DNA of 64,000 bases from Candidatus Omnitrophota bacterium (GTDB taxonomy: Bacteria; Omnitrophota; Gorgyraeia; Gygaellales; Profunditerraquicolaceae), in assembly GCA_028715415.1 (NCBI GenBank), contig JAQURX010000002.1, positions 119,144-183,143 on the forward strand. Reading direction: 5' to 3'. The notes beneath the pieces are model-generated. The model was not told the DNA's origin. It ran no database searches and saw only the letters and a list, made by a program, of their open reading frames with translations. Positions 3 to 64,000 of this stretch are shown one piece after another. The stretch's first letter is position 1; every line of letters begins with the position of its first letter. The position numbers and the translations under genes are program-made.

Positions 3-3000
3 AGAGGGATTGCCCATGAACAATTTACGCATGCAGAATTTAATTCAGATGCTTTTATTCAAAGGTTTTGGGATGAGAAAAGATGGGGTAGGCCATTTTA
101 CGCTTTAGCTAAGGAGGTGCCAAAATGTACAAAGCAGAGCAGCTCGAATTTACCAGGGTTATGCCCAGAAAAGACGGTATCTTTGTGGATGCGAAGTATA
201 ATAATTGGCATTACGAGTTTCATTTCCTTATTCAGCAAGACGGTAAAGTTAAAGGCGAAACAAGCACTGGCAGTTGGCTTGAACTTAGCAAAGAATTTAG
301 CAGCCTCGTTGTTAAGAGGGCTCGTTTCGTTATCGCTAATCAAGCAAAACTTATCCATCTTTAGCTTTGCTCAAGACGGATTTTTATTACCTGAAAAGAA
401 AGCGCTTTCCCTAGATAACTGCGTAAACCCAAGATTAAGGATTTTGATTGTGGATGATCAAAAATGCAACCTTGAAATAATAAGTGAAATATTAACAGGT
501 TTTGATTCATTAATAGAAATTACTACTGCAGAGAATGGAGAAAAGGCGTTAGATTTATTTAGTAAAACAGAATTTGACGCGGTGATTACTGACAAGGAGA
601 TGCCAGGAATAAGCGGCCTTTGGTTAGCTTACGAAATCCGAAAAAAGAATCCTAATGTTATTATTTTATTGGCAACTACTAAACCAAAAGACGAAACTAT
701 ATCTGATTATATACGCAGAGGAATTTTAGATGGATATATAGAAAAAAGTTATGTTGATGAGAAAATCTGGGGTGATCAACTAGAGCAAATAAAACGAAAA
801 ATATCGGGAAGACAGGCACAGGCCAAAGATTCTAATAGCGATGGGCAAGTTAACTTACAAGCTTTAAGCCCTGTCTTTTTAGCAATGATTTTGGATTCCA
901 TCCATAGCGTTATTAGTAACCATTTATTTTTCGGTTTATCTATTGTTGCTATGGTAATTGTAGCTGATTTAGGAACGAAAATGTGGGTGTGGCATAAATT
1001 GCTATTAGGTTCGGAAGTTACTGATGACCAAGGGCCTCTTAAGGATGTTGTGAAGGGGAGCTATTATCTTCATAAATCATTCTCCAGGTTTAGTTTTACT
1101 CTGTTTTCAGTCAGCATGGTGATTGGTTTTGTTTGCGTTCAATCGGTTCAAGGCGCAAATTATTTCTTTATAGCTAGCTCTGCTATTACATTAGGAGCAG
1201 TAATATCGCAAACAATCGACTGTTTTATTAATAAAGGTGGAGTTACTGATTGGATAATCTTAAAAAGACAAGTAACGAATATCGCAGATATTATGTTGTT
1301 GGCTAGTCTTTTAGTATTATTTATCGGATTTACAGTTGATATTATCAAACATTGTTTAGTAGAAGTAGATGTCCCATCTATTTTCATTTCTTTAAGCGCG
1401 ATAAATTGCATAGGCGCCTGTTTTAATAATACATATATTTCATGCCCCGCTGCAAAGTTCGTTAGAAAAAGCAATGTTTACCTCTCCGTGGCTGGTGGGG
1501 AACATTCGCTTCTTTGCAACGGGGCGTGGTCTGTTAAGGATAATGACACTCGTGCTTATCCTGCGAAGGCAAGAACGGCAATTAAAAAACCCACCGTGAC
1601 ATTATCAAAGAAAAATGGTAAAGGAAAACTTAAGATTGAAGAAATAAACTATCGGGTTCCCGGCAATCAAATTGAAAGATTAAATACTGAGGAAGAAAAC
1701 GCTTTACCTGAAAAAGTTGCTGATATCCTGGATGGCATTTTAACGCATGCCCCGCCGCATAAAGGGATTAAAATTATTATCACCGGAGAGCGCAATAAAC
1801 AGGTATTCAGCATTGATCGGGAAGGAAATATCCTTGTTTTTACGATACACTGGGTTTTATTAAGAGAAGACTTTGCCAACGGTATTGCCCACAGGCTTAC
1901 AGATATCCGTAAGATTGTTGAGGACGCGAAAGCAGTTATCCGTGATGATATTAAACAGCATGAGAAATGGGAATTAAACGGTATTAATTCAGGTTTGTCA
2001 AAAGAAATAGCCCATCGTATTGCCTGCGAAAAGAGCGTAGAGTATTTTAAAAATCATAAAAGAGAATTGATTGATTTCTTATCCGCAGTGCAAAAATGTA
2101 AATTAGATTTAACCTTGGATGAAACATACGAAAGACAGCTTTTAGAGCTTGCGTTAGAGGAAAATTGTTTAGTTACCGCGTTTGCAGAGGTTCTGTCCGT
2201 TCATAGAAGAATTTCCGAAGAAGTTAGTTATATCGCAAAAACCATTACAAATGAAGATGGCGATATTTGCTTGCAGGATTTACGCTTTTGGCATGGCAAA
2301 ACTTTATTACCTCTTGCAAAGTCGCTTAAGATTATTCATCAAAAAATCTTGTCAGAAAGAGAAGGATTGGTTTGTAATTCAAGTTTCCGTATTGCCTGCG
2401 GTAAGATAGAGATAGACTTTGCTTTTAAAGCAGGGAAAAACCATATTATGATTGTCAGGTCAGACCACGGAGATTGGCATGCTTATGCAGACGAAGAAAA
2501 TTTGTTCAGCGCTCCGGGTTCTAAAGGTGATGCAGGCTTAATCAGTGCTTACCAGACTTTGCTTAACAATCCTAAAGAAATTGAGTATGTAGGTATAGAG
2601 GAGGATAAAGATTTTTCCGCGAAATTAGCGGCGCTCAATGCTTTAAATAAAGAAAAAGGCTCTAATAAGGTTATTGAAAATGTCCTGAATGACCCTGAAT
2701 TTAAGAGAAGAGTATTCTCAATCATCAGGGCTCAGGACAGGCAAGATGATACGGGCGGATATTCTGTGGATAGGCAATGGGCAGAAAAGATTAAGGAAGA
2801 AGTTTTAAATCGCGCAGTTGATGTAATTAAAGACAGGGACATTTTTATCCTGCAGATGGAATATGAGTTATCCGCAAGGTTCTTAAAAGAATTTTGCGAG
2901 TATTTACAGCTTAAAAAAGGCTGTACTTACGATGATGCAATTTACAATACAGGCGAACTTGCAAAGCTTCTAATGGCAGGCGGGTTAGGGAGTTTTAAGC

Positions 3001-6000
3001 CTGATTTAGTAAGAGGATGGTATCAGGTTCTTGAAGAGCACTTGGGGAGTATTGAAGCATTAAATAGATTGCATGTTTTTGGCATTATGTATTCTCAGGC
3101 GATAAAAGGACAGGGTGCAGTTAAGCCTAGAGGCGCTATTGCAAATGAAGACATGGCTGATATTGTGCGAAAGTGTTTAATTAAAATTAAAACCTTTAAA
3201 GATATAGAAATTAATATGAATGGGGTAGATAAGGTTGATGTAGAGATTTATATGAATCCGTATTCTGAATTAAAAGAGTATTGGATTTATGATATACCGA
3301 ATCCCGTTACCGGCCAGAGGGTTTTTCATGAAGCATATTGTGGCGGGGCTGATGATGATTACCGCGCTATCCAGACATTGCTTTATCGGAAAGTTGTCTT
3401 GAGGTTTATTAAGGAAGGTGTTACTGAAGGGTCTATAAGCCGTAGAATGTTATTTTCTACAAGTGAAATAAACAGTACTCTTGTTATTCCGGAAGTTGTT
3501 GAGGATGAATTTGAACACGATGTGGATTTTAAGGAGTTATTAATCCATCATTATAACCATACAATTGTTCCTGCAGGCATGCCTTTATATAATTGGTATA
3601 TGTTTCATGCTTTAAAAATCGCAAAGCAGTTTTCAGACTGTATTTATAACGGCAAGGTAGATTTGGTTAGGATTACTGGTAGGGTCAGCCATATAATCAC
3701 AGGATGTTCTACAGCCCATACAAAGATATTAAGAGAAGAAATATTTAGAGAGTTCGCGGATAAAGTAACTGAAGATGAATTATTCGGCAATAGCGAAGGC
3801 TCGGATGTGGAACGTTGGCAGGGTGAAGAAATCCAAGCCTTGATTAAGGCGTATATGTTAGTTACAAAGGCCGCTACATACAGCGATTTGTTTAATGCTT
3901 TAGATAATGATAAAAAACTAAAAGCAGTTTTTATTAAAAAACTGCTAGAAATCAAGAAAAGGCAGAAGCAACTTTTTATTGATGAACTGTTTAAAGGTAC
4001 TTTTGGCCAGATTGATGTAACTAAGGATGATCTTAAAGCTGCCGGGACATCGTTGATTGATCGGCCGTTCTTTACTTTCGTAAGAAGGTTTGTTGATTAT
4101 AAGTGCGGTGATTTTATTGTAGATGTTTTATATGACCAGAATTTTAGAGAAAGAATTGTTAAGTCAGGAGCGGTAATCCTTATCGGTGGTAGAAAATTCG
4201 GCTCTTTTGCTGACATACAGCACCGCAGAATTCAGGATTTAATCAAAATAGACCCTCGGATGAAATATCATATTGTTTTTGTATCCAACCATAATGTCGC
4301 AACCTCCTGGATAATTCAGCAAGGCACTAATTTCGGAGGCATGCTTTCATGGATGGGTAAAGAAGCAGGGCCTACAAGCTTTGGTAATGCCCAGCAAAAC
4401 GGTGCTCCAAGCTTTGCTTCTCCTGACGGGGTAATTGTTGAAAGGGTTAAGGCGGTTGAGAGAGATGCCGAAGGTAATATTATAAATGGCACAGGTTATA
4501 TTGTTAATTATGGGCAAGAACGTTCATTTTCCGGAGATATCAAACCTGACAGAGAATCATTTGTCGCGAACATGGAAACTGCATGCGGGGATTATTTTAG
4601 GTCCGAGAATTACGGGGTTCTTGCTTATAATGCTTTGAGAATGGGCTTGGGCCAAGGCGACATAAGAAACCAGGCTAAGGGTTTAATTTGTGTCTGGGCA
4701 AAGATGTGTGAATCATTTGATCCTAACCAGCAATATTATAGAGTTGGGGTAGGTTCCGATATTGGAGTAGCTACAAGCCGTCTTAAGCCAGTTGGTTCGG
4801 AAGAAAAAGATATTATGCCGGATGGTGTAGTTATGCTTAAATTAAACTCTGATTTTAACGTTGGAATTAATACTGGTAATGATCGAGTTAATCAATGGTT
4901 TAAAGAGAATGCTCCAGCAATAAATAGTCGTTTTAAGGGCATGGCTAGCGATTCAAGATTAAAAGATTTAGCAGGGATGATTGAAGCTAATCCGGAAATA
5001 AAAGCCATATTTACTGCTAACGCTGAATTTGTCGGCCAAGTTATAAATAGAATTGCTTTATTCCACTGGTCGATGATTACGCGCGCGCCTCCGCTTTTGG
5101 CTCAATTGGTTGTCGTTGAAGAAATCCTGCATTATTATTTCCCCGGACAAAATGAGTTAGTACATAGTGTCATTGATGATTATATCAGAGTAAATTTGGC
5201 AACGTCCTTCCATGAAGCAATCCAAAACGCTAAACAATATGGTATTCATCCTGTAGATGCATGGGGCCAGGAAGATGCCCTCCAGCTTTATAACAGATCG
5301 CCGTATAATCACGCAAAGCATATGGAAGTGGTTATTAAGGCTGATGTTGATATGGCAGGGGATGAATTTGCGATTCAAATACTCAAATGGCTGCAATACT
5401 GGTTTATGCGTGTATCTCCTACTTCTCAAATCGGTATTCAGCTCTGCACAGGTGAGAGCCCGTTTATCGGATACCGTAAGATCGGAGAAATCCTGAAGAA
5501 TTGGGATACTAGAGAAGTACAAGAGTTTTTGCGGGCAAATGGTTTGGATACAGCCTTAAAGCCGGATATGAGAAGGGTTGTTGTTTTTGCCGTAGATGCG
5601 ATGTTTCCTCAGAAACGTACCGACTATTTTTCTTTCGCGAATTTACTTAATAGCGTATGTGACCTGTGGGGTGTGCCAAATGAAAATCGTAATCTATTCT
5701 ATGGCGATATATATGTTAGTTATGAAAATGGTAAGTGGCAGGAAAGCATCATTCCTGATAATGAATATGCAGAGATCTTAAATAGTATTGATAGGGAAGG
5801 TTTGCAGATTTTGGAATTCCAGGCAGCATGTTTGTTGGAGCGCGACCACGCCAAGAGAGATTTGCGTGGTTTTGCTTTTAATTCTGACCTTGTGCGTCAA
5901 GGCAAAAAAGTCTTTGGGCATATGTTGAGAAGAAACAATCGCGGTGACTTTGAAATTATAAAAAGAGAGATAAAACCGCTTTCTCCGGATCACATACAAT

Positions 6001-54000: not shown

Positions 54001-57000
54001 TTTTAAGCCTTATTGGATCAGGGAAGTCAGTTACTCCGGAAACTGTGGCATTATACAGTTTTCCTGTATGCCTATTTGTGGCTGCATGGGACTTACTTAA
54101 GAAAATAAGATGGTTGATGATCGGGGTTGTTATTTTTATTACAATTTTATCCGGCTGTGCTACTAAAGGCAGAGTTAGCGTTATCGGCCAATCAAAGGGG
54201 AATAAAGATATTTTAAGGGAGTTAGAAAAGGAAACAGGTTTTATCCCTGAGTGTAAAGCTGAAATCTTAGCGATTGGTTTTGAAGGGCTTGGCAGCCATA
54301 ATATGCGTAATTACCTGGCAAATTTACACGATAAGTATATCCCTCAACTTGAGTATTTTATGATTGATGACCATCGTAAGGATGCTGTTGAAATAGTTAA
54401 ACGCGCAGTTAGGGCAGGAAAGATTATTGCTATTCTTACTTATAGTAACAACAGTAGCGTCTTTATGGGGCTTGGTGGTGGATGGCATGATTTTAGTGAA
54501 GATTTAAAAAAGATAAAGGTATGGATTGATATTGCTAAGTTTGACGATGATAATTGGAATCCTGAAATTGCAGATAATATTATTATAGTTCTTAATCTTC
54601 ATACTGATGATGTCATTCAAGGCCCATCAATGTATGCGCGAAGATTTGAAGGAGAGCCTTTAGCGATTGTTGACCGGAAATATATTAACCTTGGGCATTT
54701 GCGTATGCCTCTCGTCCCAGAAGATGCCACAGAAGATGAATGTTGGTATGCTATATCTTCAAATGAATTGTTTATCAGGGCTTGTAATCTGGTTTATGAG
54801 TTAAAACAAAAAGGCAAATTTCCCAGCACGCAGCCGTATGTTAAACCTGTAAAGATGCAGCATAAACGCCGCGGTTCCATCTCTTGGCAGGCGCTTCTAT
54901 GCTGTGCGGTTTTCACGATTCTAGGATTTGTGGGCATTGCATTGTTAAATATTCATAATGATGCTGTTGCTCAAATGGCTTCTATATCTGGAGCAAGCCC
55001 GGAGAATAATCCTGCGAGCTTAGTTCTAGATACTGCAGTAACTTTCGGTGAAAGTTCTGTTTTGGGGCTGCAAGAATCTTTATTATGGATCGTATTTGTT
55101 TATGCGGCAGCGATTATTGTGTTATTGGTTGCTGTGGTGTTTGTTTTCCACAAAATCCTGGCCGAGAAATCCATAATTAAAGACAGCGGAGAGGTATATT
55201 TTGAAAACCAAAGTTATCAGGCGAAATTATTTAATCTATCTATTTCCAGCCAGGGCAATGATGCTGAAACAGGTTTTGGGTTTAGTAAAGAGGGAAATAG
55301 CGGCGAATTGTTTATAGGGGAGAAAAACGGAGTTGATTTTATTGGAATCCAAAAAGGGCAATTTTATGGAGCAGCGCATTGGCATCCGATAAATTCAAAG
55401 AAAAATTATTTTCTCCCTAGTTTTGAAGATATATACGAATCTTATAGATACGGAATAGACTTAGCCGTTGTTGTTTGGGGAAGAGGGAATGATCTATTTG
55501 CGACTGAAGTATCCTTGCCTTTGCTTGAAGACGGCCCGATTAAGCCCTATCAAAGATACCAGAAGTTTATGGATGATTACGGCCCTAAAAAAGCGCTTAA
55601 AATATTAGAAAAATATTCTGTAATAAAATGTTATCAGCTTAGGCTGGAAGCAGGAAGGTATATCTCTAAGCAAATTCATGCAAGGCAGGTTTTAGAGGCG
55701 GTAAAAAGATTAAGTGGAGAAAAGCCCGGTTTACGCTGTTCGGGTTTGTTGTTTGCTAGCGTAATTCCGATGCTGGCGAGTAATGATGTAGGAAGTGTAA
55801 TGCCGCATGCGCCTCCATGGATCCCAATATTGTTTTTGGCCGCAATTTGTTTGTCGTATCTTATCAGTATTTCTAATTTTTCGCAATCAAATGCAAATTT
55901 CCCTCTGGAACAAGATTCTGAAATTACGTTGGATCAGCTAACAGAGAAGATAATTAACAATTGTATGAATGGAGACTTTAGATTGCTTAGGCTTGATTGG
56001 GGACAGGCAATCCACCAGCATCAAGAGTTTATTAAGCACGCCGCTGCAATAAATTCCGCAATTAAACATTTGCTTAAAAACCGTCAGGAAGATTTCATAA
56101 ATTTTAAAGATTTCCTGAAAGCTGCGATTGCCTGCCGGATTGAAATGTTGGAGCATTATCAAGCTCCTTTATCAGCTGAAGGGCTAAGGCAGATTCAGCT
56201 AACCAAGAATGTTTTAATAAAGGACAATCGTTTAACCCAAGAGGTTCTATTGAAGGAGCTTAATAGGGTATTGAATCCTTTTAGGAATTGGTTTATCTAT
56301 TTGTTTAGCGGAGAAAGAAAGGGTATTTTTAATAATACTTTTAAAAAACAGACTGAAAGGATATATTTGGTTGCGACTTGGGGGTGTTCTACGCAATGTG
56401 ACCATTGTTATATTGCAAGTTTAATCCAGGTTACGATTTTTCCTTGGGTTTGGCTGGAAGAATTAGGAAGTATTAACTATTCTAAGCATGTTGATACATA
56501 TAAAAATGATTTTTTAAGAGATTACTATGATTATGTTTTTGATAAAGATGCTTCGGATGTCGCTGATTTATTTAATATAGGGTCGGTCTCAACTTCCGGA
56601 TTTGCTCTTGGTTCAGTAGGAGAGAGGGCTTTTGTGAAGTTCTTGCAAAACAAAAAAGCTATAGGAGGGATTATTATTAGTGTTGTGCAAAGCGCTTGGG
56701 TGCGCAAAATAGGCGTAGAAAAATATATCAGGTATTTGCAGAATATCGATGGATTGTTCCAAGCTCATGGAAGAAAAGGGACTTCTTTAATATATTTCGA
56801 GTTTTCTCTTAACCGCAGGACTGATCCTGAAAATTGGTTTGAGCCTGTTAAGGGTTTTCTTAAAACGAAGGAAAAAGTCTCGCCAAACTTAGTTTTAGAG
56901 AATGCCGGAAGAATGCGCCAACTCTTTGAATGCGGATTAATAAATGCTAATGTGGTTTCTTCAATGTTTACTCATGAAAACTATAGAAAATATTTTATAA

Positions 57001-60000
57001 TTCCTGATGGGCAGGTTGTACGTGGAATTGGGTATGATAAAGATGATAATTGCGCAAGCTATAAAGTAGTTCCGGGTTTAGAAGGCATTGGTAATAAATT
57101 AATTAGATGCTGGTATTGCAGGAACAATTGTAATGGGGATAAGAGAATTAATTGTGTTGGTAGAAAAGATTATTTTGCCGCACAGGGGTTATCTTGTGCA
57201 GGAGGGTTTGCTGCGGAAGATGTGCGTGATTTGCATTGGGCGAAAAGGGTGAATAATCTACCGTTAAATTATGATGCAAGAAAAGAAGCGGTGTTGAAGG
57301 AAATTTACTCAAATACTAAAGTTGTTTCTGATCCTAATACTGTCGCTTATGTAAGGGAAAGAATCAAAGCGGCAAAAGAAAAAGTCCGCAATCATCCTCA
57401 ATGCGATGGAAGAATTATTGTTCAGCTTCAGCTTATGGAAGAATGCCCAATCCGCGCCGGCCCAATGCCTAATTTGCATGCTGTTGTTAATCGTGAACAC
57501 GAAACATCTTTCCAAAAAGCAATCTTCCTTGATACAACTGAAAGCCAATCCCTTCTTGATCCAGCCAACGAGTCCAAATTGCTAATCGGCCTTATACATG
57601 AAGCAAGAGCGCAGGCTTATCCGGCCAGCGCAGATGCGGAGAATGAAACCTTTGCCAGTATCTATTGTGGCGTTTCAATAGGAGATACAATTGAGGAGCT
57701 ATTTGATCATGATCTTTGGCTTTTGCATCGTGACGAAGATCAATATGAAAATATCCCCCCGCAATTCGGGCATCCCAAGACTTACCTTAGGGAATTATTA
57801 GGAAACTCTAAAGTCTGGGTTGATGTAGGGTGTGGCTTGGGGGTTGCTGCAGTAAAACGGGCGTTTTTTGAAAAGTATCCGCTAAAAGTTTATGCTGTTG
57901 ATATCGTTGATTGGGCAAAGAGGGTTGGGAAGATCAAAAAGTACTTAGCAGAGCAACACAGTTATCTTTGCCTTGAGGACTTTCTTGAGCTTCGCGGGAA
58001 AATGTTATCAAGCGGAAAGTTCTGTTTTATTGAGGATGATATGGCATCTGTTGTTTTGCCTGAGCCGCCGGATTTGGTTACAAATTTCTATGTATTGCAG
58101 TATATGCGCGATCCGTTTGCCGCGATAGTCAATATTTATAACCAGCTTGCATTATGGGGGAGGTTTGTTTTTGCGGTTGCTGTCCCTAAACGGGCAGGTG
58201 TTTTTAAACAATATGAATTACTATTTGATTACTTATACAATGAACACAGTGCGCTTGTTTTAAGATGGCATGACAATTCGTTGCCTGATGTTGAAACCTA
58301 TTTAGTTGAGATAAACAAAAATCAGCCAGGTACTGTCCGGAATATATTTGAACTAAATAATTCTCAAGAAGTTTTTGTTAGGCTTAGCGTCCGTGATGAG
58401 AAAAGGGTTATTATCCGAGTTCCAGCTTATGCTGGAAAATCAGTTGTTAGAGAAAGCGCATTTTTATGCCTTAACCCAGGCTTGTTGCTCGCAGCGTTCA
58501 GCGGGAGCGGATATGCTATTGGGCAGTCCTCGTTAATAATTTGTTTAGGCATAATTGTATTGGGGTATTTATTGCTAACTATTTGTTTCAGTGATGATGT
58601 TGTGAGATTGCCAGAACCAAATCCCAGTGCCTTTACTTTATGGTCAAATTTACTTATAAATAAAAATAAAAGAAGAGGGATGCTTTTATTCGGCAATAGC
58701 GGAAGCGGTAAATCATTGCTTACTGCGCTTATGCTTGGTTTTGATGAATTCGGCATAAGAGTAAATCCTCAGCCTCAATGGTTATTCGGAGGGGATGATG
58801 TAATTAAAGGTATTCCTTTAGGGAATAAGCTTTGGGCAGGTTATGATTATAAGAGCCCTGTAATAACTAGTTACGACCCCGCAATCCAAAAACGGCTTAA
58901 GGAATTAGGCTTTAGGGATCTTAGAAGAAGAAATTTAATATGGACTAATATATTCCCGGTTAACATGTTTGTACCGGTTAAACTCGCAGTTTATTTAAAT
59001 ATTACGGATAATGATAAAAAATTAACTCTTGCCCGCGAACAGCTTTTTGAGAAAATTATTGGAACAATCCAATATTCATCTTTACCTCAATGGTTTTTAA
59101 ATGCTTTCTCCGGAATAGAAATGTTGGAGGTGCCCATAGCAAGAAATCGCAGTATAAGAAATTATCCTCAGGCGGCTTTGCGGATAGAAGAAGCATGGCG
59201 CAGAAGTAGTTCAATAAAAAGACAAACTTCGACTTTATCGTGTTACGGTTTACTTTTGGCCACGATTCCTGTATTAACTAATGGTATCAGCCCTATTGTG
59301 CTGTTGTGTGGAGTGTCCGCCTTAGCAGTAATTACTCTTTGTATTGTTTCTTTATTTGCTCAATCAGGAGAACAGGCTTTACAGAATTTGAATCAGGATA
59401 ATAGAAAAGGAATCAACCTGGGAGATTCTGGGGTTGTAATTATTAATGATTCGGTAATAGAGGCAAAGGCAGAAGTGCGGAAAGCATTCAATATGCTTGG
59501 CGATCTATTAGATAAGAAATCCGAAAACAAGAAAGTTAAATTAACAGATCAATTGCTTCATAAGTTTTTTATCCGGGGGATTGAAGCTTTGTGGGCTTTT
59601 GATTTTTTCAAAGGGGATATTGTAAACCAAGAGGAAATCAAAAAGAGGATAGCTAAAGCTATTGTGGTAATTTATGAGTACAAAAGATTAATGGAGGCAT
59701 TTTGTGATTATGGTTCACAGTTAAGGAATTCCGACGCGGCAAATATGGAGTGGGGCAGGAATATGCTTGAATGTATTGATGCAGGAGTATTTGATGCGGA
59801 GTTTTTTGCTGGGTTTAATAATTTTGTTAATGTTCTTCAGGAAGCAGCGGGTAAATTGAGAGATTTTCTGCTTAATTCTTATGATCCTCATCGTGCAGCG
59901 TTGTCTCTTCGTCCTGTGATTAATACTGATATCAGGGCCTGCGGCTCTGATGAAGTTTATTGTAATGACGGAAGAATGACGAAGCCCGCTATTGCTAAAA

Positions 60001-63000
60001 CCATAGAGGTTTTAAAACTTGCTAAAAGGCGGGGTTTGATTGAAGAATCCAAGACGGATTTATTTGAGGGAAAAATAAAACTCTACCATGTTTTTAATAA
60101 CCTCAATCCGGGAGAGGATTTTTCTACAGTAAATTATCTTTGGCGTGAATCTCCAGCTAATTATTTGTTTGCAGTAGCTTTAAGAAATCCTGTAGAGGAC
60201 GAAAACGGTGGCAGCCTTCCTCCTGGGATTTACATTCCATTCGCTTTGTATTTTTGGCTGGCGTTCTGCAACTTTGATTTATTCAAGGAATTGCTTGGAT
60301 ATGAAGAGAAAAATTTCTTAGGCCAGAAAGTAAAAGCAAAGGATAGAAGGTCTATTGTAGACAGGTTAAGCGCCAAGCCGCAATTGACAAAACAACAAAG
60401 GCCGCTAGTCGTAGCAAACTTGCTTACTTATTGTTTATTGTATGAGAAAAAACTGGCATTGCTGCAGGATTTGCGTCCTGCTTTTAAAGAAGCTTATGAC
60501 AATCTAACAGCTAATCGTTTTAACACTGCTGAAATCCCGGAATTATTTAGCAGATTTTGCCTTGTTTCAGAAGATATTAACCATATATTTGGTTCATTTA
60601 TAGGGTTATGGCATACGGTTGAGGGGGTATTGTCTGAATTATATAGGGATGTCGATAAGCTCGATAACCAAGAAGAGTTGAAAGTTCTCCAAACTTTATT
60701 TGAGTTTTTGGACAAGAATACACTTTTCTGGCAGAAACCAATTTCTCCGATTATCATGACTTTGATGGATACAGTTTCGTCTTATAGCTATATTGACAGC
60801 GTAGATAAAGAAGGATTTCCTTTGATGTCAGAGGTAATTAAGAATATGAGTATATCGCGCTGGCTATACCAAAAGTTTGCAGCAATCAGGAAACAATTAG
60901 GGATTTCTATTCAAAAGTGCATAATCTTGTTTCCTTTTGCCGGGCTTTTGCTTTGTTTGGGCGACCTGCATCGCGCGAAGTGGGGGATGAAGCCTACTAA
61001 AGCCGAGATTGAATCTGATATCTCCGGATCAAGCAGTTTTACAAAAAATACATATTTCTTAAAGGTAGTTGAGGATGCAATTACATTAGCTGAATCAAAA
61101 GATAACCGTGTAGCAAGGACATTGAGGGCAATCAAGGATTCTATAGTAGTAAGGGCAGGGCCCTTTACCTATATATGGGGAACTTTCCGCAACAATACAC
61201 TCTACCTCGACCAAACATTACTAATTAACCCTTCCTTACGCGAAGAATTAGCCTTAACCCTTATCCATGAAGCAAGAAAGATTGCTTATCCTAAAGCCCA
61301 AGATGAAGAAAATGAGAATTTCGCAAGGCTCTGTTTCCGCGAAAGCAGCCATAAAATATCATTTACCTTAGATGAACTAGTTTCAATAATTCTAAACGAA
61401 TGTACAAACGGAAACTTTGCTTCTCTTTCTCTGTATTGGAGCCAAAAAACATACCAATACCAGGAATTTATTAAACATGCCTGCGCTATTAATACTGCGA
61501 TTAAGAAACTCATCTCCGAGTCAGTAACAGTAGATAAGGCTTTCCGGAAAGAATTTTTCAAAGCAGCAATCGCGACGAGAATTGATATGATTGAACATTA
61601 TATGGCACCTCTTTCCGATATGGGTCGGGATTTGATTCATGATATAAAGCAAAGGATGGATAAGTTTACAGAAGATTCTTGCTTGGATATCATTGCAAGT
61701 CTTATGAAGCCCGATCGAGAACTCTTTATCAAATTATTTAATGAGGAGAGGTTAAGGATTATTGGTTATCAACTATTTGCTCCAAAAGTTGTAGCTACCT
61801 GGGGTTGTTCTGAACAGTGCGACCATTGTGATGGCGCAAGCCTGTTCCGGGTAGATTGTTTCCCATATATCTGGCTTGAAGAAGCCCAAGAACGCGGCTA
61901 CCAGATTGACCATTACAAAAATGGGTATTTTAAAGATTACTATGATTTTGTTTATGATAAGGATGGGTCAAGTGTAGTCGCAAAGTTTGGTGCAAGCTTT
62001 GCTTATACCGCGCCAATTGAAGAAGGATCGGTAGCAGAGCGTGCTTTAGAAAACTTATGGTTAAGTTTTACTATTTATATCAGTCTTGCTCCGAGTGCAT
62101 TCTGGCGCAGGGTTGGAACTGAAAGATATATGGATGCATTGATTAATATGGAGAGGATATGCCTGAATGCAAAAAATAGTAATATTGCTTATAAATATAT
62201 TGCATATAGATTTTGCCGTTTAGATGATCCCCAGATGTATTTTGAGAATTTGTTTAAATGGGATAATATCGTAGAAGAATCAAGACAAGGGCAGCCTACT
62301 GAAATAAGTAATTGCGGGAGATACTGGCAGTTGGCTTCACTTGGAATATTGGATTTAACCCAGGCAAGTGGGTCGTTTGCTATTGAAAGAGAAGATACCG
62401 GCCGAATTTTTATTTTACCCGATGGCCAAGTTATTAGAGGATTGACTTGTGAAGACGATATCCATTTACGCCGCTATGAAACCGTTCCTTCTCTTGGCCC
62501 AATCAGCAAGAGGTCTATTAGGTGCTGGAATTGTCATTTTGATTGCCAAGGTAAGAATCAAGAAGGCTGTCCGGGAAGAAAGGCATATTTTACTGCACAT
62601 GGATTATCAGAAACAGGCGGGTTTAGTGTTTATTGCGGCATTCCTTTGCCTGCAATCCGGGTATTATTCAAGGCATTTTCGATAATTAGTGTTGTGTTGC
62701 TATCTTTATTCATTAAAGGCTGTGGTTATATCCCAGGAATTGTTAAAGATGTTTTTGCCCAACAATCCTATTGTTCTGATAATTCAAAATATATTGAAGA
62801 AAACACGCGTGTTATTGATAGAAATGGAATTTCAGTTAGATATTTTGACGCAGGTGATGCTTTGGAAACAATTTTATTGGTTCCGGGATTTGATGAAACT
62901 ATTGAAATATTTAGATGCAATGTTGAAGCTTTGGTCCAAGCAGGGTTTAGAGTAGTATGTTTTGACCTTCCGGGGTTTGGACAGACAGGTATCCCGGGTA

Positions 63001-64000
63001 ATTTTGATTTTTCAACTGCAGCATACGCCGGCTTTATTCACGATATGCTCAATGGATTAGATATCCAGGAAGTCTATCTAACCGGGCATTCCATGGGAGG
63101 AAAAATAGTACTTAAATTCTGCTTACTATATCCGGAAATGGTAAAGAGGGCTGTAGTAATTAGCTCGGTAGGTATTGTTTCAAAAGATTCTTGGCTTGAT
63201 TTTGCTATGGAGTTATTTCCTCAAACATTCGATAATCCTGTTAATGCGGCAATTTTAAATAGTGACGCTTTAGATCCTCTCAACGATGAAGAATTTGCTG
63301 CACTTTCAAATCTAAATATTCCATTTTCAATTCTCTGGGGTGAGGGAGATGTCATCGCCCAACCGTGGGAAGCAGCTGTTCTTTCCGAAAAACTTCATAA
63401 TTCATCTGTAACTATTTATGATGACGCCGGGCATCTTGTTACGACAGAAGAAAGTACAAATGTTAACAGCTTGCTAATTAAATTCTTCCAATTCAGCCTT
63501 GCTTTTGCTGCGGTTTTAGCCTTAGGAGGATGTACAGAAGGTTTAAAAATTGCATCTTTAGAAATTGATAATGTAATGGCAGGGAAAGAGATATTTTTAT
63601 TAGTAATAATCCTTTCATTTCTTGGCATTCTTAGTTTTTCTCGATCAAATTCAAATTTTCCTCAGGAAAAAAATTCAGTTAAAAAGTCAATCGAAGATTA
63701 TTCTGAAATCACATTGGATCAATTAATAGAAAGGATAATTAACGATTGCAAGAATGGAGATTTCAGGCTGCTTGAGCTTAATTGGGACCAGGTAATCTAT
63801 AGATATCAGGAATTTATTAAACATGCCTGCGCTATTAATACTGCGATTAAGAAACTCATCTCCGAGTCAGTAACAGTAGATAAGGCTTTCCGGAAAGAAT
63901 TTTTCAAAGCAGCAATCGCGACGAGAATTGATATGTTTGAGCATTATAAGGCTCCTCTTTCGAGATTTGGGATTGATGTGGTTAGGGATATAAAAGAGCG
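3..64000 (+). CDS. Giant multidomain ORF in frame 3, truncated by both window edges. More than 21,300 sense codons with no in-frame stop seen. Mosaic of enzymatic, regulatory and hydrophobic modules.
   Basis: I tiled the whole window into frame-3 triplets by hand and found no TAA/TAG/TGA. Independently indexed motifs at 438 (RILIVDD), 25506 ([11 protein letters not shown]), 28740, 31353, 37689 ([11 protein letters not shown]), 41277 (GFDGLWLDAA), 48021 and 63081 (GHSMGG) all start at positions divisible by 3. Codon usage is uniformly RNY-like with A/T-rich third positions. The ORF track has no frame-3 ORF, consistent with one ORF above its length cap. Confidence 0.85.
110..119 (+). promoter_or_regulatory. 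Shine-Dalgarno-like TAAGGAGGTG upstream of ATG 125
   Basis: AGGAGG at 112-117 with a 7-nt spacer to the ATG. AAG GAG GTG is an unusual codon choice for this AT-rich gene if it is read in frame 3. Confidence 0.45.
125..364 (+). CDS. 79-aa small ORF in frame 2, nested in or overlapping the giant frame. It has a canonical RBS, and its product is a small mixed-composition protein of unknown function.
   Basis: It is listed in the ORF track. TAAGGAGGTG lies at 110-119, 5-7 nt before ATG 125. Frame 2 here has about 30% G at the first codon position and a balanced amino-acid composition (W, H, Y, D, E, K). The frame-3 reading of the same stretch is low-complexity S/L/I/K with many NCG and NAG codons that are atypical of the giant gene. 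Frame-2 stops are at 110-112 (TAA) and 362-364 (TAG). Confidence 0.4.
   Translation: MYKAEQLEFTRVMPRKDGIFVDAKYNNWHYEFHFLIQQDGKVKGETSTGSWLELSKEFSSLVVKRARFVIANQAKLIHL
359..365 (+). promoter_or_regulatory. CUU-UAG-C site with the geometry of the prfB-type +1 frameshift. It joins the end of the small frame-2 ORF to the giant frame-3 ORF.
   Basis: The frame-2 codons are CTT(359-361) TAG(362-364). The frame-3 codons are TTT(360-362) AGC(363-365). There is no SD-like stimulator immediately upstream, so this could be coincidence. Confidence 0.2.
429..800 (+). other. Receiver (REC, CheY-like) domain 1 within the giant ORF
   Basis: PRLRILIVDDQ (beta1 with DD pair), AVITDKEMPGISG (phospho-acceptor Asp in an ITD context plus MPG), IILLATTKPKD (conserved T and K region). 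Confidence 0.7.
850..1480 (+). other. Polytopic hydrophobic region of about 4-5 predicted TM helices
   Basis: Long stretches with no charged residues: LSPVFLAMILDSIHSVISNHLFFGLSIVAMVIVADLG, FSFTLFSVSMVIGFVCV, FFIASSAITLGAVISQTI, IADIMLLASLLVLFIGFTVDII, SIFISLSAINCIGACF. Confidence 0.5.
5055..5260 (+). repeat. Paralogous protein module 'W.M.TRAPPL.A.L..EEILH...H..ID.Y', copy 1 of 3
   Basis: HWSMITRAPPLLAQLVVVEEILHYYFPGQNELVHSVIDDYIRVNLATSFHEAIQNAKQYGIHPVD. Compare the copies at 14060 and 15625. Confidence 0.6.
9060..9440 (+). other. Receiver (REC) domain 2, with a divergent acidic pocket
   Basis: LFVLAVDNEDWELMLLKRTLKG, NLVITDNNMPGMWGHDLAGKIREIAPNILIIMRSTEP...K. The Asp in the ITD context and the MPG motif are conserved, and DNED replaces DD. 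Confidence 0.6.
9684..9750 (+). other. Four-cysteine CxxC...CxxC zinc-ribbon-like motif
   Basis: NPCLSCITNMKCKAVDGEGQCGKCVG. Confidence 0.35.
14060..14270 (+). repeat. Paralogous 'TRAPPL/EEILH' module, copy 2
   Basis: SWAMLTRAPPLIALLTFAEEILHFVIDEDLEVHNAIDCYVANNLYDYFLSEIEKAKRKGINPHD. Confidence 0.6.
14530..15300 (+). other. TPR-repeat region of several tetratricopeptide repeats. A second TPR-like stretch follows at about 15880-16200.
   Basis: EEARKYIELDPYDPDGYEDLCRISLGLGDFDTVIAAADKIIFFNPDSGLGHSRKVQALRAKGEIKAALRAAVKFVNLFPKDSIGWSQLCDVYYDLGDMEGALSSAYEAISLDPSSPYGYGQL has the classic W/L-G-Y..A..-F..A..-P periodicity. Confidence 0.65.
15625..15830 (+). repeat. Paralogous 'TRAPPL/EEILH' module, copy 3
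   Basis: SWAMFGRVPRLIALYTLVEEILHYSKNKDKEVHDLVDDYIAENIYDDFLAAVKEAADNGIVAYD. Confidence 0.55.
17375..17480 (+). repeat. Hydrophobic hairpin motif 'SCHAW.VLALF ... E.LW(A/S)TGPLWVVV', copy 1. DNA core ctgggcaaccggaccgctgtgggtggtggt at 17441-17470.
   Basis: LSCHAWSVLALFVGSYQQTSVIEFLWATGPLWVVVALAAVLFLSMMNF. Confidence 0.6.
20055..20170 (+). repeat. Hydrophobic hairpin motif, copy 2 (ggaccgctgtgg at about 20115). A partial third 'SCHAWPVLALL' copy lies at about 20565-20650.
   Basis: LHCFASVPLLALLGPWSIGPLWIALGIFALIFVLQF. SILSCHAWPVLALLSFNSLWLAVALFAFLGVFYL. Confidence 0.55.
24990..25380 (+). other. Class-I SAM-dependent methyltransferase-like Rossmann module
   Basis: NLILDIGGAWPTAIKL (motif I-like), LVVILDIDPDKIELAK (acidic post-I), FIFIEGDVRALPIE (motif II-like), LLQDGGKFYLAG (motif III-like). 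Confidence 0.45.
25500..26410 (+). other. Complete thioredoxin-disulfide reductase (TrxB)-like FAD/NAD(P)H module with a CAVCD redox-active disulfide
   Basis: [30 protein letters not shown] (FAD GxGxxG). CAVCDG at 25893-25910. KKVVVIGGGNTGVEDALHLAKIASQVTLIV (NADPH GxGxxG/A). GIFAVGSV...GEGAAV at the C-terminus. Confidence 0.8.
29285..29360 (+). repeat. Repeat 'AQLGFTSPFTH..N..G.GL', copy 1. The DNA core is near-identical to 31446-31478.
   Basis: GLGLSQLGFTSPFTHVVNLVGIGLLLSVF. The core cagttagg(g/a)tttacttcgccatttacgcat is shared. Confidence 0.6.
31440..31520 (+). repeat. Repeat 'AQLGFTSPFTH', copy 2
   Basis: LGLCLAQLGFTSPFTHILNVTGVGLIILGLILVF. Confidence 0.6.
32700..32770 (+). repeat. Hydrophobic 'ESLWSTGPLW' motif copy (DNA ggtccgctgtgg)
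   Basis: GIIESLWSTGPLWMVALMVFSFVTYLFF. Confidence 0.5.
34650..34740 (+). other. Acidic and Pro-rich low-complexity linker
   Basis: DDGDDRKPEPVAPDPEPVGEDAPVGD, immediately followed by the hydrophobic hairpin at 34740-34900. Confidence 0.5.
34740..34900 (+). repeat. Hydrophobic hairpin motif copy (LACHTLPVVLLLGLLGLGGCG ... ESCWATGTLWVVFVMLF) containing an internal lipobox-like LGGC
   Basis: Diverged copy of the CHAW/TGPLW pair. Its DNA tgggcgacggggacgttgtgggttgtt resembles the 17441 core. Confidence 0.5.
35150..35330 (+). other. HprK-C-like P-loop module 1 (GESTSGKST Walker A followed by DD)
   Basis: LWANLIIDRETTRGLLIFGESTSGKSTITSLMLGLNPKSKDVGLSNRWILGVDDLAQGF. Compare the HPr-kinase C-terminal pattern G.LI.G.SG.GKSE.AL.L...G..LV.DD. 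Confidence 0.45.
35790..35870 (+). repeat. Hydrophobic 'ESLWSTGPLWVVV' motif copy. DNA ctggtcaaccggaccgctgtgggtggtggt at 35815-35844 matches 17441-17470 at 29 of 30 positions.
   Basis: LIESLWSTGPLWVVVILLICTLFF. Confidence 0.6.
36790..37965 (+). other. GT4-family (GT-B fold) glycosyltransferase module
   Basis: KPTVVHIMSNLGRGGAERNTLNLVAGL at the N-terminal half. [48 protein letters not shown] is the E-x7-E retaining GT-B signature. Confidence 0.75.
40555..40770 (+). repeat. Paralogous module 'IRAGP..TYIW.T.RNN..Y.D...L...L...LIHEARKIAYP', copy 1
   Basis: IVIRAGPGLTYIWATYRNNIFYIDKDLLSNQYLRFELLVTLIHEARKIAYPEAKDHENEVFAQEC. Confidence 0.55.
40840..42250 (+). other. GH13 (alpha-amylase family) TIM-barrel catalytic module with conserved regions I-IV apparently intact
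   Basis: Region I is GIKVIFPAILNHVS. Region II is GFDGLWLDAASAL at 41277 (nucleophile Asp). Region III is RVMAECYDVFD (acid/base Glu). Region IV is RRHFARVNHDKLE (NHD). Confidence 0.7.
44870..45265 (+). other. GHKL-type ATPase (HATPase_c, histidine-kinase or anti-sigma Ser-kinase-like) module
   Basis: N-box ELGCNIHKYGDKG. G1 box IVARDVGKGIGD. G2 box IGEGNGLRTI. Confidence 0.6.
47310..49390 (+). repeat. Tandem array of about nine XRE/Cro-C1-type helix-turn-helix domains. Each is about 75 aa (about 228 nt), joined by a conserved 'N(P/E)PDW..FG...GYG.RIR' linker.
   Basis: YGDRLRKVRNAQKLTKQEVSFLTGGKVDAGRIKRWE. YGMRIRDLREKNMLKSCELAEVVGVGDDTICDWEFERKIPLDENITKLSNVL. KNPPDWDNFGITKGYGKRIRRARLAKGLAQCELGRSIGLSVSRVAAWEKEEIECPTHEALERFAKALDVPIEYL. 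QNPPDWKTFGIINGYGRRIRKARMALRMSGEELG... Confidence 0.75.
51130..51560 (+). other. Possible NAD(P)-binding Rossmann module (D-2-hydroxyacid-dehydrogenase-like GxGxxG...AR)
   Basis: IMIDGFGRTGQSVARSIIHDLPEEVRIVAVR. Confidence 0.35.
52330..52600 (+). other. HEAT/PBS-lyase-like alpha-solenoid repeats
   Basis: DDFHVREDSAHALGFLLLEEKNKQARWVIAEALLHACSDRSEAVALWAHWAIS. Confidence 0.3.
55880..57250 (+). repeat. Radical-SAM-like module, copy 1: CX3CX2C plus a C-terminal Cys-rich (SPASM/twitch-like) segment
   Basis: ATWGCSTQCDHCY at 56385-56408. C-terminal CWYCRNNCNGDKRINCVGRKDYFAAQGLSCAGG. N-terminal ITLDQLTEKIINNCMNGDFRLLRLDW...QEFIKHAAAIN. Confidence 0.5.
57580..57670 (+). repeat. 'LIHEAR' module, copy 2 (partial)
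   Basis: LLIGLIHEARAQAYPASADAENETFAS. Confidence 0.45.
57750..58230 (+). other. Class-I SAM-dependent methyltransferase module
   Basis: Motif I VWVDVGCGLGVAAV. Post-I VYAVDIVDWA. FCFIEDDMASVVLPEPPDLV. FYVLQYMRDPFAAIVNIYNQLALWGRFVFAV. Confidence 0.6.
58640..58810 (+). other. HprK-C-like P-loop module 2 (paralog of the module at 35150)
   Basis: LWSNLLINKNKRRGMLLFGNSGSGKSLLTALMLGFDEFGIRVNPQPQWLFGGDDVIKG. Confidence 0.45.
61150..61340 (+). repeat. 'IRAGP...LIHEARKIAYP' module, copy 3
   Basis: IVVRAGPFTYIWGTFRNNTLYLDQTLLINPSLREELALTLIHEARKIAYPKAQDEENENFARLCF. Confidence 0.55.
61340..62660 (+). repeat. Radical-SAM-like module, copy 2
   Basis: ATWGCSEQCDHCDG at 61806-61829. C-terminal CWNCHFDCQGKNQEGCPGRKAYFTAHGLSETGG. 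It is collinear with copy 1 throughout. Confidence 0.5.
61461..61589 (+). repeat. 129-bp segment identical to 63807-63935, an intragenic direct repeat about 2.35 kb apart
   Basis: caggaatttattaaacatgcctgcgctattaatactgcgattaagaaactcatctccgag...gcgacgagaattgatatg is the same in both places. The copy-1 equivalent at about 56020-56160 is only about two-thirds identical. Confidence 0.9.
62790..63490 (+). other. Alpha/beta-hydrolase-fold module (GHSMGG nucleophile elbow), bracketed by lipobox-like hydrophobic segments
   Basis: ILLVPGFDETIEIFRCNVEALVQAGFRVVCFDLPGFGQTG, VYLTGHSMGGKIVLKFCLLYPEMVKRAVVISSVG, GEGDVIA...DDAGHLVTTEE (catalytic His region). Confidence 0.75.
63640..64000 (+). repeat. Radical-SAM-like module, copy 3 (N-terminal part only, running off the window). 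Its N-terminus resembles copy 1 and its middle is DNA-identical to copy 2.
   Basis: FSRSNSNFPQEKNSVKKSIEDYSEITLDQLIERIINDCKNGDFRLLELNWDQVIYRYQEFIKHACAINTAIKKLI... Confidence 0.55.
63807..63935 (+). repeat. Second copy of the 129-bp identical repeat (partner at 61461-61589)
   Basis: Character-by-character comparison of the two stretches. Confidence 0.9.

Follow-up and report, generated by a model that had tools for sequence, protein, structure and literature searches.

A bacterial contig in which one reading frame stays free of stop codons over tens of kilobases raises the question of whether this DNA belongs to a single gene and, if so, how such a gene is built and what becomes of its product. 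The stretch analysed here, hereafter the window, comprises 64,000 nt of contig JAQURX010000002.1 (positions 119,144 to 183,143 of the forward strand; GenBank assembly GCA_028715415.1) of a Candidatus Omnitrophota bacterium, and it had been read in a preliminary description as a single open reading frame (ORF), coding for a section of a giant protein with many domains. The window is a piece of a single gene, open at both ends. Its explanation is, with considerable confidence, one giant gene whose product would consist of enzyme and regulatory cassettes tethered one after another to the membrane, with co-translational insertion at hydrophobic separators and evolution by in-frame cassette gain, loss and shuffling.

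The open frame and its coding signal

Positions are given 1-based in the window, residue i of the translation corresponding to nt 3i to 3i+2. A scan of positions 3, 6, 9 and onwards found no TAA, TAG or TGA in any of the 21,332 codons of frame 3 of the + strand (3..64000), exactly as the preliminary description had stated. The remaining five frames held 1,615, 2,286, 691, 1,504 and 1,309 stops, with open runs of at most 810 nt. Given the base composition of the window (A.313, T.306, G.225, C.156), the probability of a stop is ~0.073 per random codon, that is ~1 per 14 codons, and arithmetic on stop counts gives a probability of ~(0.927)^21332, or ~10^-700, for the absence of stops in frame 3. 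Moreover, the frame continues past both edges of the window (at least 63,996 nt), also as first described, with the start and the stop codon lying outside, and the window represents an internal fragment of the gene.

The coding signal agreed with this frame along the whole window. The codon log-likelihood in 1.5-kb bins was positive for frame 3 in all of them and negative for frames 1 and 2, and the order GC1 > GC2 >= GC3 was observed for frame 3 in nearly all bins. Furthermore, codon usage was uniform, and both the GC content (0.36-0.41) and the positive GC skew were even along the window. Comparison of paralogous modules within the chain pointed to purifying selection, with a dN/dS of 0.27 at dS 0.70 in the youngest pair and of 0.12-0.20 in older pairs, for which dS was saturated. 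On the - strand, frame 1 had 691 stops, markedly fewer than the remaining non-coding frames, and it contained the 810-nt open run. A long sense ORF commonly leaves such a mirror image on the opposite strand, and the pattern does not represent a gene.

The matches between modules of the window and stand-alone genes elsewhere would also be expected if separate genes had been joined in phase by mis-assembly, or if their stops had been lost to systematic sequencing or consensus error. However, such an assembly artefact would require dozens of joins, all of them in phase, with every stop removed, and is extremely improbable. The uniform composition and codon signal left no compositional seams, there were no long DNA repeats to seed chimeras, Shine-Dalgarno (SD) and promoter-like signals were depleted and not present at junctions, and relatives from many projects, independently assembled, were equally stop-free. 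Tandem DNA repeats of note were likewise not found in the window.

Signals of separate genes were also looked for within the frame. In-frame ATG codons preceded by an SD core amounted to 8, compared to 15.8±3.4 in synonymous-codon shuffles, and none of these eight sites matched a module boundary, while SD cores in the whole window amounted to 474, compared to 540±23 in the same kind of shuffles. Internal translation starts at cassette boundaries were rejected because of this depletion of SD+ATG sites. Sigma-70-like promoter sites (43/43/53 vs. ~60 from shuffles) were at or below chance and terminator-like hairpins were at chance level, and neither tRNA, tmRNA nor Rfam families were matched in the window. 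These counts also bear on a 'stopless operon', in which one frame would yield many proteins via internal initiation or via programmed termination or cleavage during translation. Its appeal lies in the cassettes being gene-sized and some of them beginning with signal-peptide-like segments, but in-frame SD+ATG sites reached only about half of their expectation, with none at a cassette start, no Met stood ahead of the separators and lipobox-like segments described below, and the Rfam search gave no element, so that this alternative is very unlikely. The SD depletion and the purifying selection give indirect support to the predicted translation into a single chain.

Domains tiled along the chain

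Pfam was run on overlapping 1,000-aa tiles, complemented with targeted scans. A total of 12 distinct Pfam domain types were found in the window, none of them dominating, and ~80% of the chain had no Pfam match. The catalytic motifs of the matched domains were mostly intact, self-comparison of the translation revealed few internal repeats, and all the features given below lie on the + strand. The coding signal, these domains and the relatives described in the next section agree on a giant multi-domain protein of Omnitrophota type, as had been proposed.

Most of the enzymes named in the preliminary description were recovered with Pfam matches and motifs. The thioredoxin reductase (TrxR)-like flavoprotein (25506..26366, aa 8502-8788; PF07992, E=1.8e-42) presented GSGPAG for FAD, CAVCDG as the redox CxxC and GGGNTG as the second dinucleotide-binding motif, and the NADPH motif HRRxxxR was not seen in its sequence. 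The GT4 glycosyltransferase (36840..37898, aa 12280-12632) matched PF13439 (E=2e-18) and PF00534 (E=3.5e-46) and had the E-x7-E motif, and it was followed by the GH13 alpha-amylase-family catalytic domain (40848..41552, aa 13616-13850; PF00128, E=2.9e-19), which kept the catalytic D/E/D and showed Trp in place of Arg before the nucleophile. Two methyltransferases were found, namely an S-adenosylmethionine (SAM)-methyltransferase-like domain (25005..25346, aa 8335-8448) with weak matches to PF13847/PF13649 under the gathering score (E ~2e-4), and a Methyltransf_23 domain (57786..58181, aa 19262-19393; PF13489, E=1.1e-6). The alpha/beta hydrolase (62868..63452, aa 20956-21150; PF00561, E=2.7e-29) carried GHSMG and the Ser-Asp-His triad. 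The array of helix-turn-helix (HTH) units, said to be ninefold, consisted of exactly nine Xre-type units of ~76 aa each (47310..49379, aa 15770-16459; PF01381, E=2e-49).

Other assignments held in part or not at all. The GHKL assignment stood as far as motifs are concerned, since the SpoIIAB-type-like module (44970..45272, aa ~14990-15090) had an N-box, DVGKG and GEGNG, but its family-model scores were sub-threshold, both for PF02518 HATPase_c (E=0.19, 12.6 bits vs. a cutoff of 26.4) and for NCBIfam TIGR01925 (spIIAB; E=8.3e-5, 22.5 bits vs. a cutoff of 135). The HprK-like reading of two P-loop modules found no support: copy 1 (35151..35690, aa 11717-11896; GESTSGKS), with a homolog in the Omnitrophota fragment P0077, and copy 2 (58638..59231, aa 19546-19743; GNSGSGKS), found by self-comparison, had only the GxSxSGKS Walker A loop in favour of it. 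No HprK C-terminal domain was found for them, the Pfam and NCBIfam matches were to generic ABC/AAA Walker A only (E>0.03), and PDB sequences gave no match.

Furthermore, several domains had been absent from that first reading, namely two receivers, a phosphorylase, TPR repeats, and LspA-like and M48-like modules. Receiver domain 1 (441..764, aa 147-254; PF00072, E=1.8e-18) had the DD...D...T...K residues, and receiver domain 2 (9081..9359, aa 3027-3119; PF00072, E=2e-10), 34.5% identical to it, had the conserved Lys apparently replaced. A carbohydrate phosphorylase-like domain (3648..4466, aa 1216-1488) was a partial profile match to PF00343 (E=3.9e-10), and the TPR repeats (14673..15260, aa 4891-5086) matched several TPR families (E ~1e-11). 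The LspA (signal peptidase II)-like membrane module (942..1328, aa 314-442) matched 139 of the 142 profile positions of PF01252 (E=2e-5 / 1.4e-6) with a borderline 25.2-29 bits vs. a gathering cutoff of 25; its two catalytic-Asp motifs (..TIDC.. and TNIAD) were recognizable by eye, with hydrophobic segments at aa 302-470. The M48 (HtpX-like) peptidase-like membrane module (28710..29150, aa 9570-9716; PF01435, E=6e-7) had a degenerate zinc motif, HEMAE where HExxH is expected. Key residues are thus altered in the M48-like, receiver 2, GH13 and TrxR-like domains, and some of these modules may be pseudo-enzymes or may have changed their specificity. A module sharing 'RAPP…EEILH' motifs and without family match appeared in three copies (4950-5342, 13710-14312 and 15300-15872; aa 1667-1765, 4579-4761 and 5107-5286).

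Separators, cassettes and relatives

Hydrophobic segments flanked nearly every recognizable module. By hydropathy only, and not by a dedicated transmembrane (TM) predictor, 44-62 segments of helix length were found, one per 344-485 aa. Some belonged to conserved separators of the form LxCxG-helix-loop-APPW-TM-NFxxS (55731..55892, aa 18577-18630, and 59235-59372, aa 19745-19790), for which a profile matched 11 times in P0077, three times in P0059, and two to three times in the window. Elements of the form W-x-T-GPLW-TM (17424..17519, 20079-20177, 32724-32804 and 35802-35897) were handled as a separate variant, because the APPW profile failed to recruit them; GPLW occurred four times in the window vs. 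0.06-0.1 expected, and TGPLW three times vs. 0.002 expected. Both kinds of separators had a conserved Cys as well as aromatic/Pro motifs, which together recall sorting signals. Moreover, the long Omnitrophota relatives P0045, P0048, P0051, P0055 and P0071 each had a short motif of their own repeated at apparent module junctions (SASPL, SSSPV/SSSPI, SSSPL, RRSPSGK and ASSP), which might act as linkers or as sites for proteases or glycosylation, and no equivalent Ser/Pro junction motif was found in the window.

Comparison with the giant ORF of locus L005 provides direct evidence, at the level of the sequence, of in-frame cassette insertion, deletion or shuffling. This ORF contained the window cassette aa 13455-14136 (nt 40365-42410; 42% identity over 688 aa) and, within 13 residues, the cassette aa 16821-17815 (50463..53447; 41% identity over 995 aa), which spans ~1,000 aa without Pfam match. 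The same two cassettes are ~2,700 aa apart in the window, and both the GHKL-like module and the HTH array lie in this interval, together with hydrophobic segments. Other Pfam-free stretches matched different relatives in other orders.

Further evidence on the origin of cassettes came from a module with a CxxxCxxC motif, identified by motif and self-comparison. Copy 1 (55926..57212, aa 18642-19070) and copy 2 (61365..62627, aa 20455-20875) lie inside the window, and only the N-terminal part of copy 3 (63699..63998, aa 21233-21332) was included, cut by the window end, with 74% aa identity to copy 2 and a dN/dS of 0.27. The 'radical-SAM-like triplicates' of the preliminary description correspond to these three copies: the radical-SAM motif was present and the fold showed a weak resemblance, but neither Pfam nor NCBIfam gave a Radical_SAM match. 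A total of 57 relatives of this module were found among 1.84 billion cluster representatives, the named ones being mostly proteins of 2,869-7,346 aa from metagenome-assembled genomes (MAGs) of Candidatus Omnitrophota, several of them 'partial' and filling the whole contig. The module also aligned end to end with stand-alone proteins of ~540 aa that have MKK-hydrophobic (Sec-type) signal peptides and are encoded by ordinary separate genes in loci L001-L004 (gene at 10001-11632 and equivalents); in the window, an internal hydrophobic segment occupies the place of this signal peptide. The stand-alone gene adjoins a PIN/PhoH gene in conserved synteny in L001-L004, and it is odd to find an invariant CxxxCxxC together with a radical-SAM-like core in a secreted protein.

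Other parts of the chain were searched as well. For the GT4-GH13 region, the best relative was an Omnitrophica MAG glycosyltransferase with 29% identity, and this search matched the GT4 domain alone, in proteins of 1-2 kaa, with no giant relative found. The first 450 aa gave a weak receiver-domain match and no close relative in a protein-based scan of metagenomes. In total, the nearest relatives of five different window modules were Omnitrophota/Omnitrophica MAGs. Almost all relatives of window modules came from MAGs of Candidatus Omnitrophota or with PVC labels, and most of them lay within ORFs extending beyond the contig.

Under the explanation by one giant gene, translation from one upstream start would give a single very long chain, in which gene-sized cassettes (sugar and redox enzymes, methyltransferases, peptidase-like, receiver, GHKL-like and HTH modules) are joined in frame, some of them existing elsewhere as ordinary separate genes. 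The hydrophobic separators, which are helices or helical hairpins, would insert co-translationally, so that the cassettes would become tethered one after another to the cell membrane, facing one side or both, and the gene would grow and change as whole cassettes are gained, lost, duplicated or reshuffled in frame. As for the membrane topology, the cofactor-dependent modules (TrxR, GT4, receiver, HTH and SAM methyltransferases) would argue for the cytoplasmic face, and the signal-peptide-bearing relatives of the CxxxCxxC module would argue for the outer face. TM-parity between cytoplasm-type modules did not resolve the topology by hydropathy alone.

Genes of this kind have been published. Omnitrophota giants of a 'multi-enzyme metabolic cluster' reach 147,155 aa and carry GT1, methyltransferase, receiver, radical SAM, signal peptidase II and oxidoreductases; at >=10 kAA (thousand residues), published giants of this phylum have a mean of ~22 TM helices, the densest ~1 per 370 aa, and 80% of the multi-enzyme ones are sequence singletons (Nielsen & Lui 2026, bioRxiv 10.64898/2026.06.07.730766). 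The 'Archaeovorins' (West-Roberts et al. 2023, bioRxiv 10.1101/2023.11.21.568195) are rich in glycosyltransferases, methyltransferases, glycoside hydrolases and peptidases, and their type is a protein of 39,678 aa from Velamenicoccus archaeovorus LiM, for which 42 TM helices and peptide evidence have been described; V. archaeovorus is the only source of peptide evidence for translation of such giants, and ORFs >20 kb occur in most Velamenicoccia genomes. Aravind and colleagues also described gigantic Omnitrophota proteins with polysaccharide enzymes, kinase-receiver signalling, metallopeptidases, methylases and TM segments. In the literature, Omnitrophota giants have been proposed to serve in contacting host or prey cells or in feeding on them.

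The window resembles these giants in its ORF of tens of kb, in the many Pfam families tiled on one mostly unannotated chain, in the kinds of families held in common (GT1/GT4, methyltransferase, glycoside hydrolase, peptidase, receiver, radical-SAM-like, signal peptidase II, oxidoreductase and TPR), in TM helices at ~1 per 350-500 aa and in poor conservation between genomes; in addition, giant ORFs of Omnitrophota MAGs hold relatives of its private modules. It differs from them in being only a fragment and in that its exact cassette order and ~80% of its sequence are unique to it. The preliminary description had called the mosaic undescribed for a single polypeptide. This novelty was overstated with respect to the class, because giant multi-enzyme ORFs with such a domain repertoire are documented in Omnitrophota, and it was correct with respect to the exact order, a unique order being the rule for Omnitrophota giants. 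Thus, the window is a new, highly divergent example of the published multi-enzyme/Archaeovorin class and not a new class.

The Chlorobium chlorochromatii giants and the Omnitrophota 'Dockerin-type' and tandem-repeat scaffolds share the extreme ORF length and the symbiotic or predatory bacterium, but adhesin-type giants present many copies of few adhesion repeats, whereas the window has almost no internal repetition and is rich in enzymes and regulators. Viral and multi-module polypeptides of the non-ribosomal peptide synthetase (NRPS) and polyketide synthase (PKS) kind share many catalytic units collinear in one frame, the viral polyproteins also having junction proteases. In contrast, the window contains no NRPS/PKS domains, carrier proteins or viral hallmark genes, and its modules are split by transmembrane segments.

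Few bacterial genes are as poorly understood as giant ORFs of this type, which take up a large share of very small genomes. The window provides handles on their construction, namely cassettes that equal stand-alone genes, in-frame reshuffling and conserved separators, and also on the possible fate of the product, through the conservation of a zincin-like module at junctions and through lipoprotein-type signals that lie inside the chain alongside the LspA-like module. The details that are new here are this junction module, the pairing of internal lipoboxes with LspA, and the direct evidence of cassette-wise construction. If translated as one unit, the gene would also bear on how ribosomes, the signal recognition particle (SRP), Sec and YidC cope with >21,000 residues and ~50 membrane segments.

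The zincin-like junction module and internal lipobox-like signals

A zincin-like module of ~125 aa appeared in three copies in the window, all of them abutting an enzyme cassette: copy 1 (40365..40736, aa 13455-13578; DPHRAK…LIHEA…NExFA) lies directly upstream of GH13, copy 2 lies at 57228..57656 (aa 19076-19218), and copy 3 (60963..61328, aa 20321-20442) lies directly upstream of CxxxCxxC copy 2. Its sequence follows D-[PL]-H-[RW]-A-K … IRAGP … LYLD … LIHEA … D-x-E-N-E-x-F-A, with conservation beginning sharply at the first of these motifs, and no match was found in Pfam, NCBIfam or PDB sequences. A small alpha/beta fold was predicted with high confidence (predicted local distance difference test, pLDDT, of 94.3), for which minigluzincins and M48/M56-type peptidases were the best structural matches; the Foldseek top matches were of the same class and not significant. 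The invariant H-E lies on a long helix, N-E-x-F-A follows ~16 residues on, and the N-terminal strand carries an invariant His as well. This last residue might substitute for the second His of HExxH, which was absent in 19 of 20 copies. Compared to the minigluzincins and M48/M56 peptidases (selecase, projannalysin, proabylysin, BepA, HtpX and BlaR1), the likeness consists of the fold, the H-E helix and the gluzincin-like spacing of NExFA, while the differences are the second zinc His missing from nearly all copies, the lack of a sequence-level family match and the occurrence as an internal repeat of giant proteins and not as a free enzyme.

A locus search with a 6-sequence alignment found this module in 10 loci of GTDB species representatives (L005-L014), five labelled Omnitrophota/Omnitrophica and five 'uncultured Planctomycetales', with up to three copies in relatives. 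In nine of these 10 loci, the module was located in an open frame running off the fetched DNA, of up to at least 6,789 aa.

Moreover, five lipobox-like signals were found inside the chain, the first at 29157..29228 (Cys aa 9742; …LLFLSGC|GTS) and the others at 34716-34796 (Cys 11598), 36570-36647 (Cys 12215), 54093-54158 (Cys 18052) and 63462-63533 (Cys 21177). The strict pattern used, set after examples had been seen, required L-[SG]-G-C after a stretch of >=8 hydrophobic residues, and its five occurrences compare to none in the reversed sequence and ~0.1 in local shuffles, the pooled relatives giving four vs. 0.07 expected. All five signals lie thousands of residues inside the ORF, not N-terminally, with no upstream Met or SD, and share one polypeptide with the LspA-like module. 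Similar '…GGC|AP…' sites were seen in the relatives P0048, P0059, P0088 and P0090.

These elements raise the alternative of a self-processing polyprotein, in which the chain would be cut at cassette junctions by the zincin-like modules, in cis or in trans, and/or by lipoprotein processing (Lgt together with the LspA-like module). Separate membrane- or lipid-anchored enzymes would be released, which would refine and not replace the explanation by one giant gene, and such processing is considered possible but unlikely. The three copies abutting enzyme cassettes, the invariant H-E, N-E-x-F-A and N-terminal-strand His, and the sharp onset of conservation all speak for it, as do the excess of strict lipoboxes and an LspA-like module with both Asp motifs, a signal peptidase II being also reported in the 147-kAA giant (10.64898/2026.06.07.730766); processing by other embedded peptidases, of the C39/S8 type, has already been proposed (10.1101/2023.11.21.568195). 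However, the second His of HExxH is missing from nearly all zincin-like copies, the zinc site of the M48-like module is degenerate, and the strict lipobox pattern is post hoc, a permissive PROSITE-like pattern not being enriched in the window (7 vs. 5.6). Furthermore, a hydrophobic helix follows 15-35 aa downstream of three of the five lipoboxes, and one of them precedes the GT4 domain, which is expected to be cytoplasmic. In its most specific form, in which the mini-zincin would cleave at its own N-terminal boundary and the LspA-like module would process the internal lipoboxes, the self-cutting polyprotein is a doubtful proposal; if true, one gene of more than 60 kb would provide enzymes and regulators in stoichiometric amounts, each of them anchored separately.

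Returning to the single, membrane-tethered chain encoded by one giant gene, several points weigh against it. The start, the stop and the flanking genes lie outside the window, which makes the full length and the genomic context indirect, and the chain would not necessarily stay intact after synthesis. CxxxCxxC copy 1 runs on into a SAM-methyltransferase without any intervening hydrophobic segment, though relatives of this module carry secretory signal peptides; the same topology contradiction was noted for such giants by West-Roberts et al. 2023 (10.1101/2023.11.21.568195). SecA_DEAD, an N-terminal C39/S8 peptidase, HEAT and NUDIX, which are frequent in full-length giants, were not found in the fragment by Pfam at E<=1e-3, an absence that is compatible with membership because the window does not reach the N-terminus or the remainder of the gene. 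In addition, a Pfam-free stretch of 1,200 aa (aa 5201-6400, nt 15603-19202) had no homolog among 5.8e9 proteins, despite which its coding statistics were normal. The last point concerns the labels of the relatives, as half of the 10 loci with the zincin-like module were assigned to 'uncultured Planctomycetales', and single relatives to Desulfobacteraceae and Thermoproteota.

Planctomycetales and Omnitrophota belong to the same Planctomycetes-Verrucomicrobia-Chlamydiae (PVC) superphylum. In particular, the names under which P0051, P0042, L005, L006, L010, L012 and L014 were deposited are 'Thermoproteota archaeon', 'Desulfobacteraceae bacterium' or 'uncultured Planctomycetales'. The relatives with such labels come from short contigs or automated third-party-annotation (TPA) bins, and they are probably mis-binned or coarsely labelled relatives from Omnitrophota.

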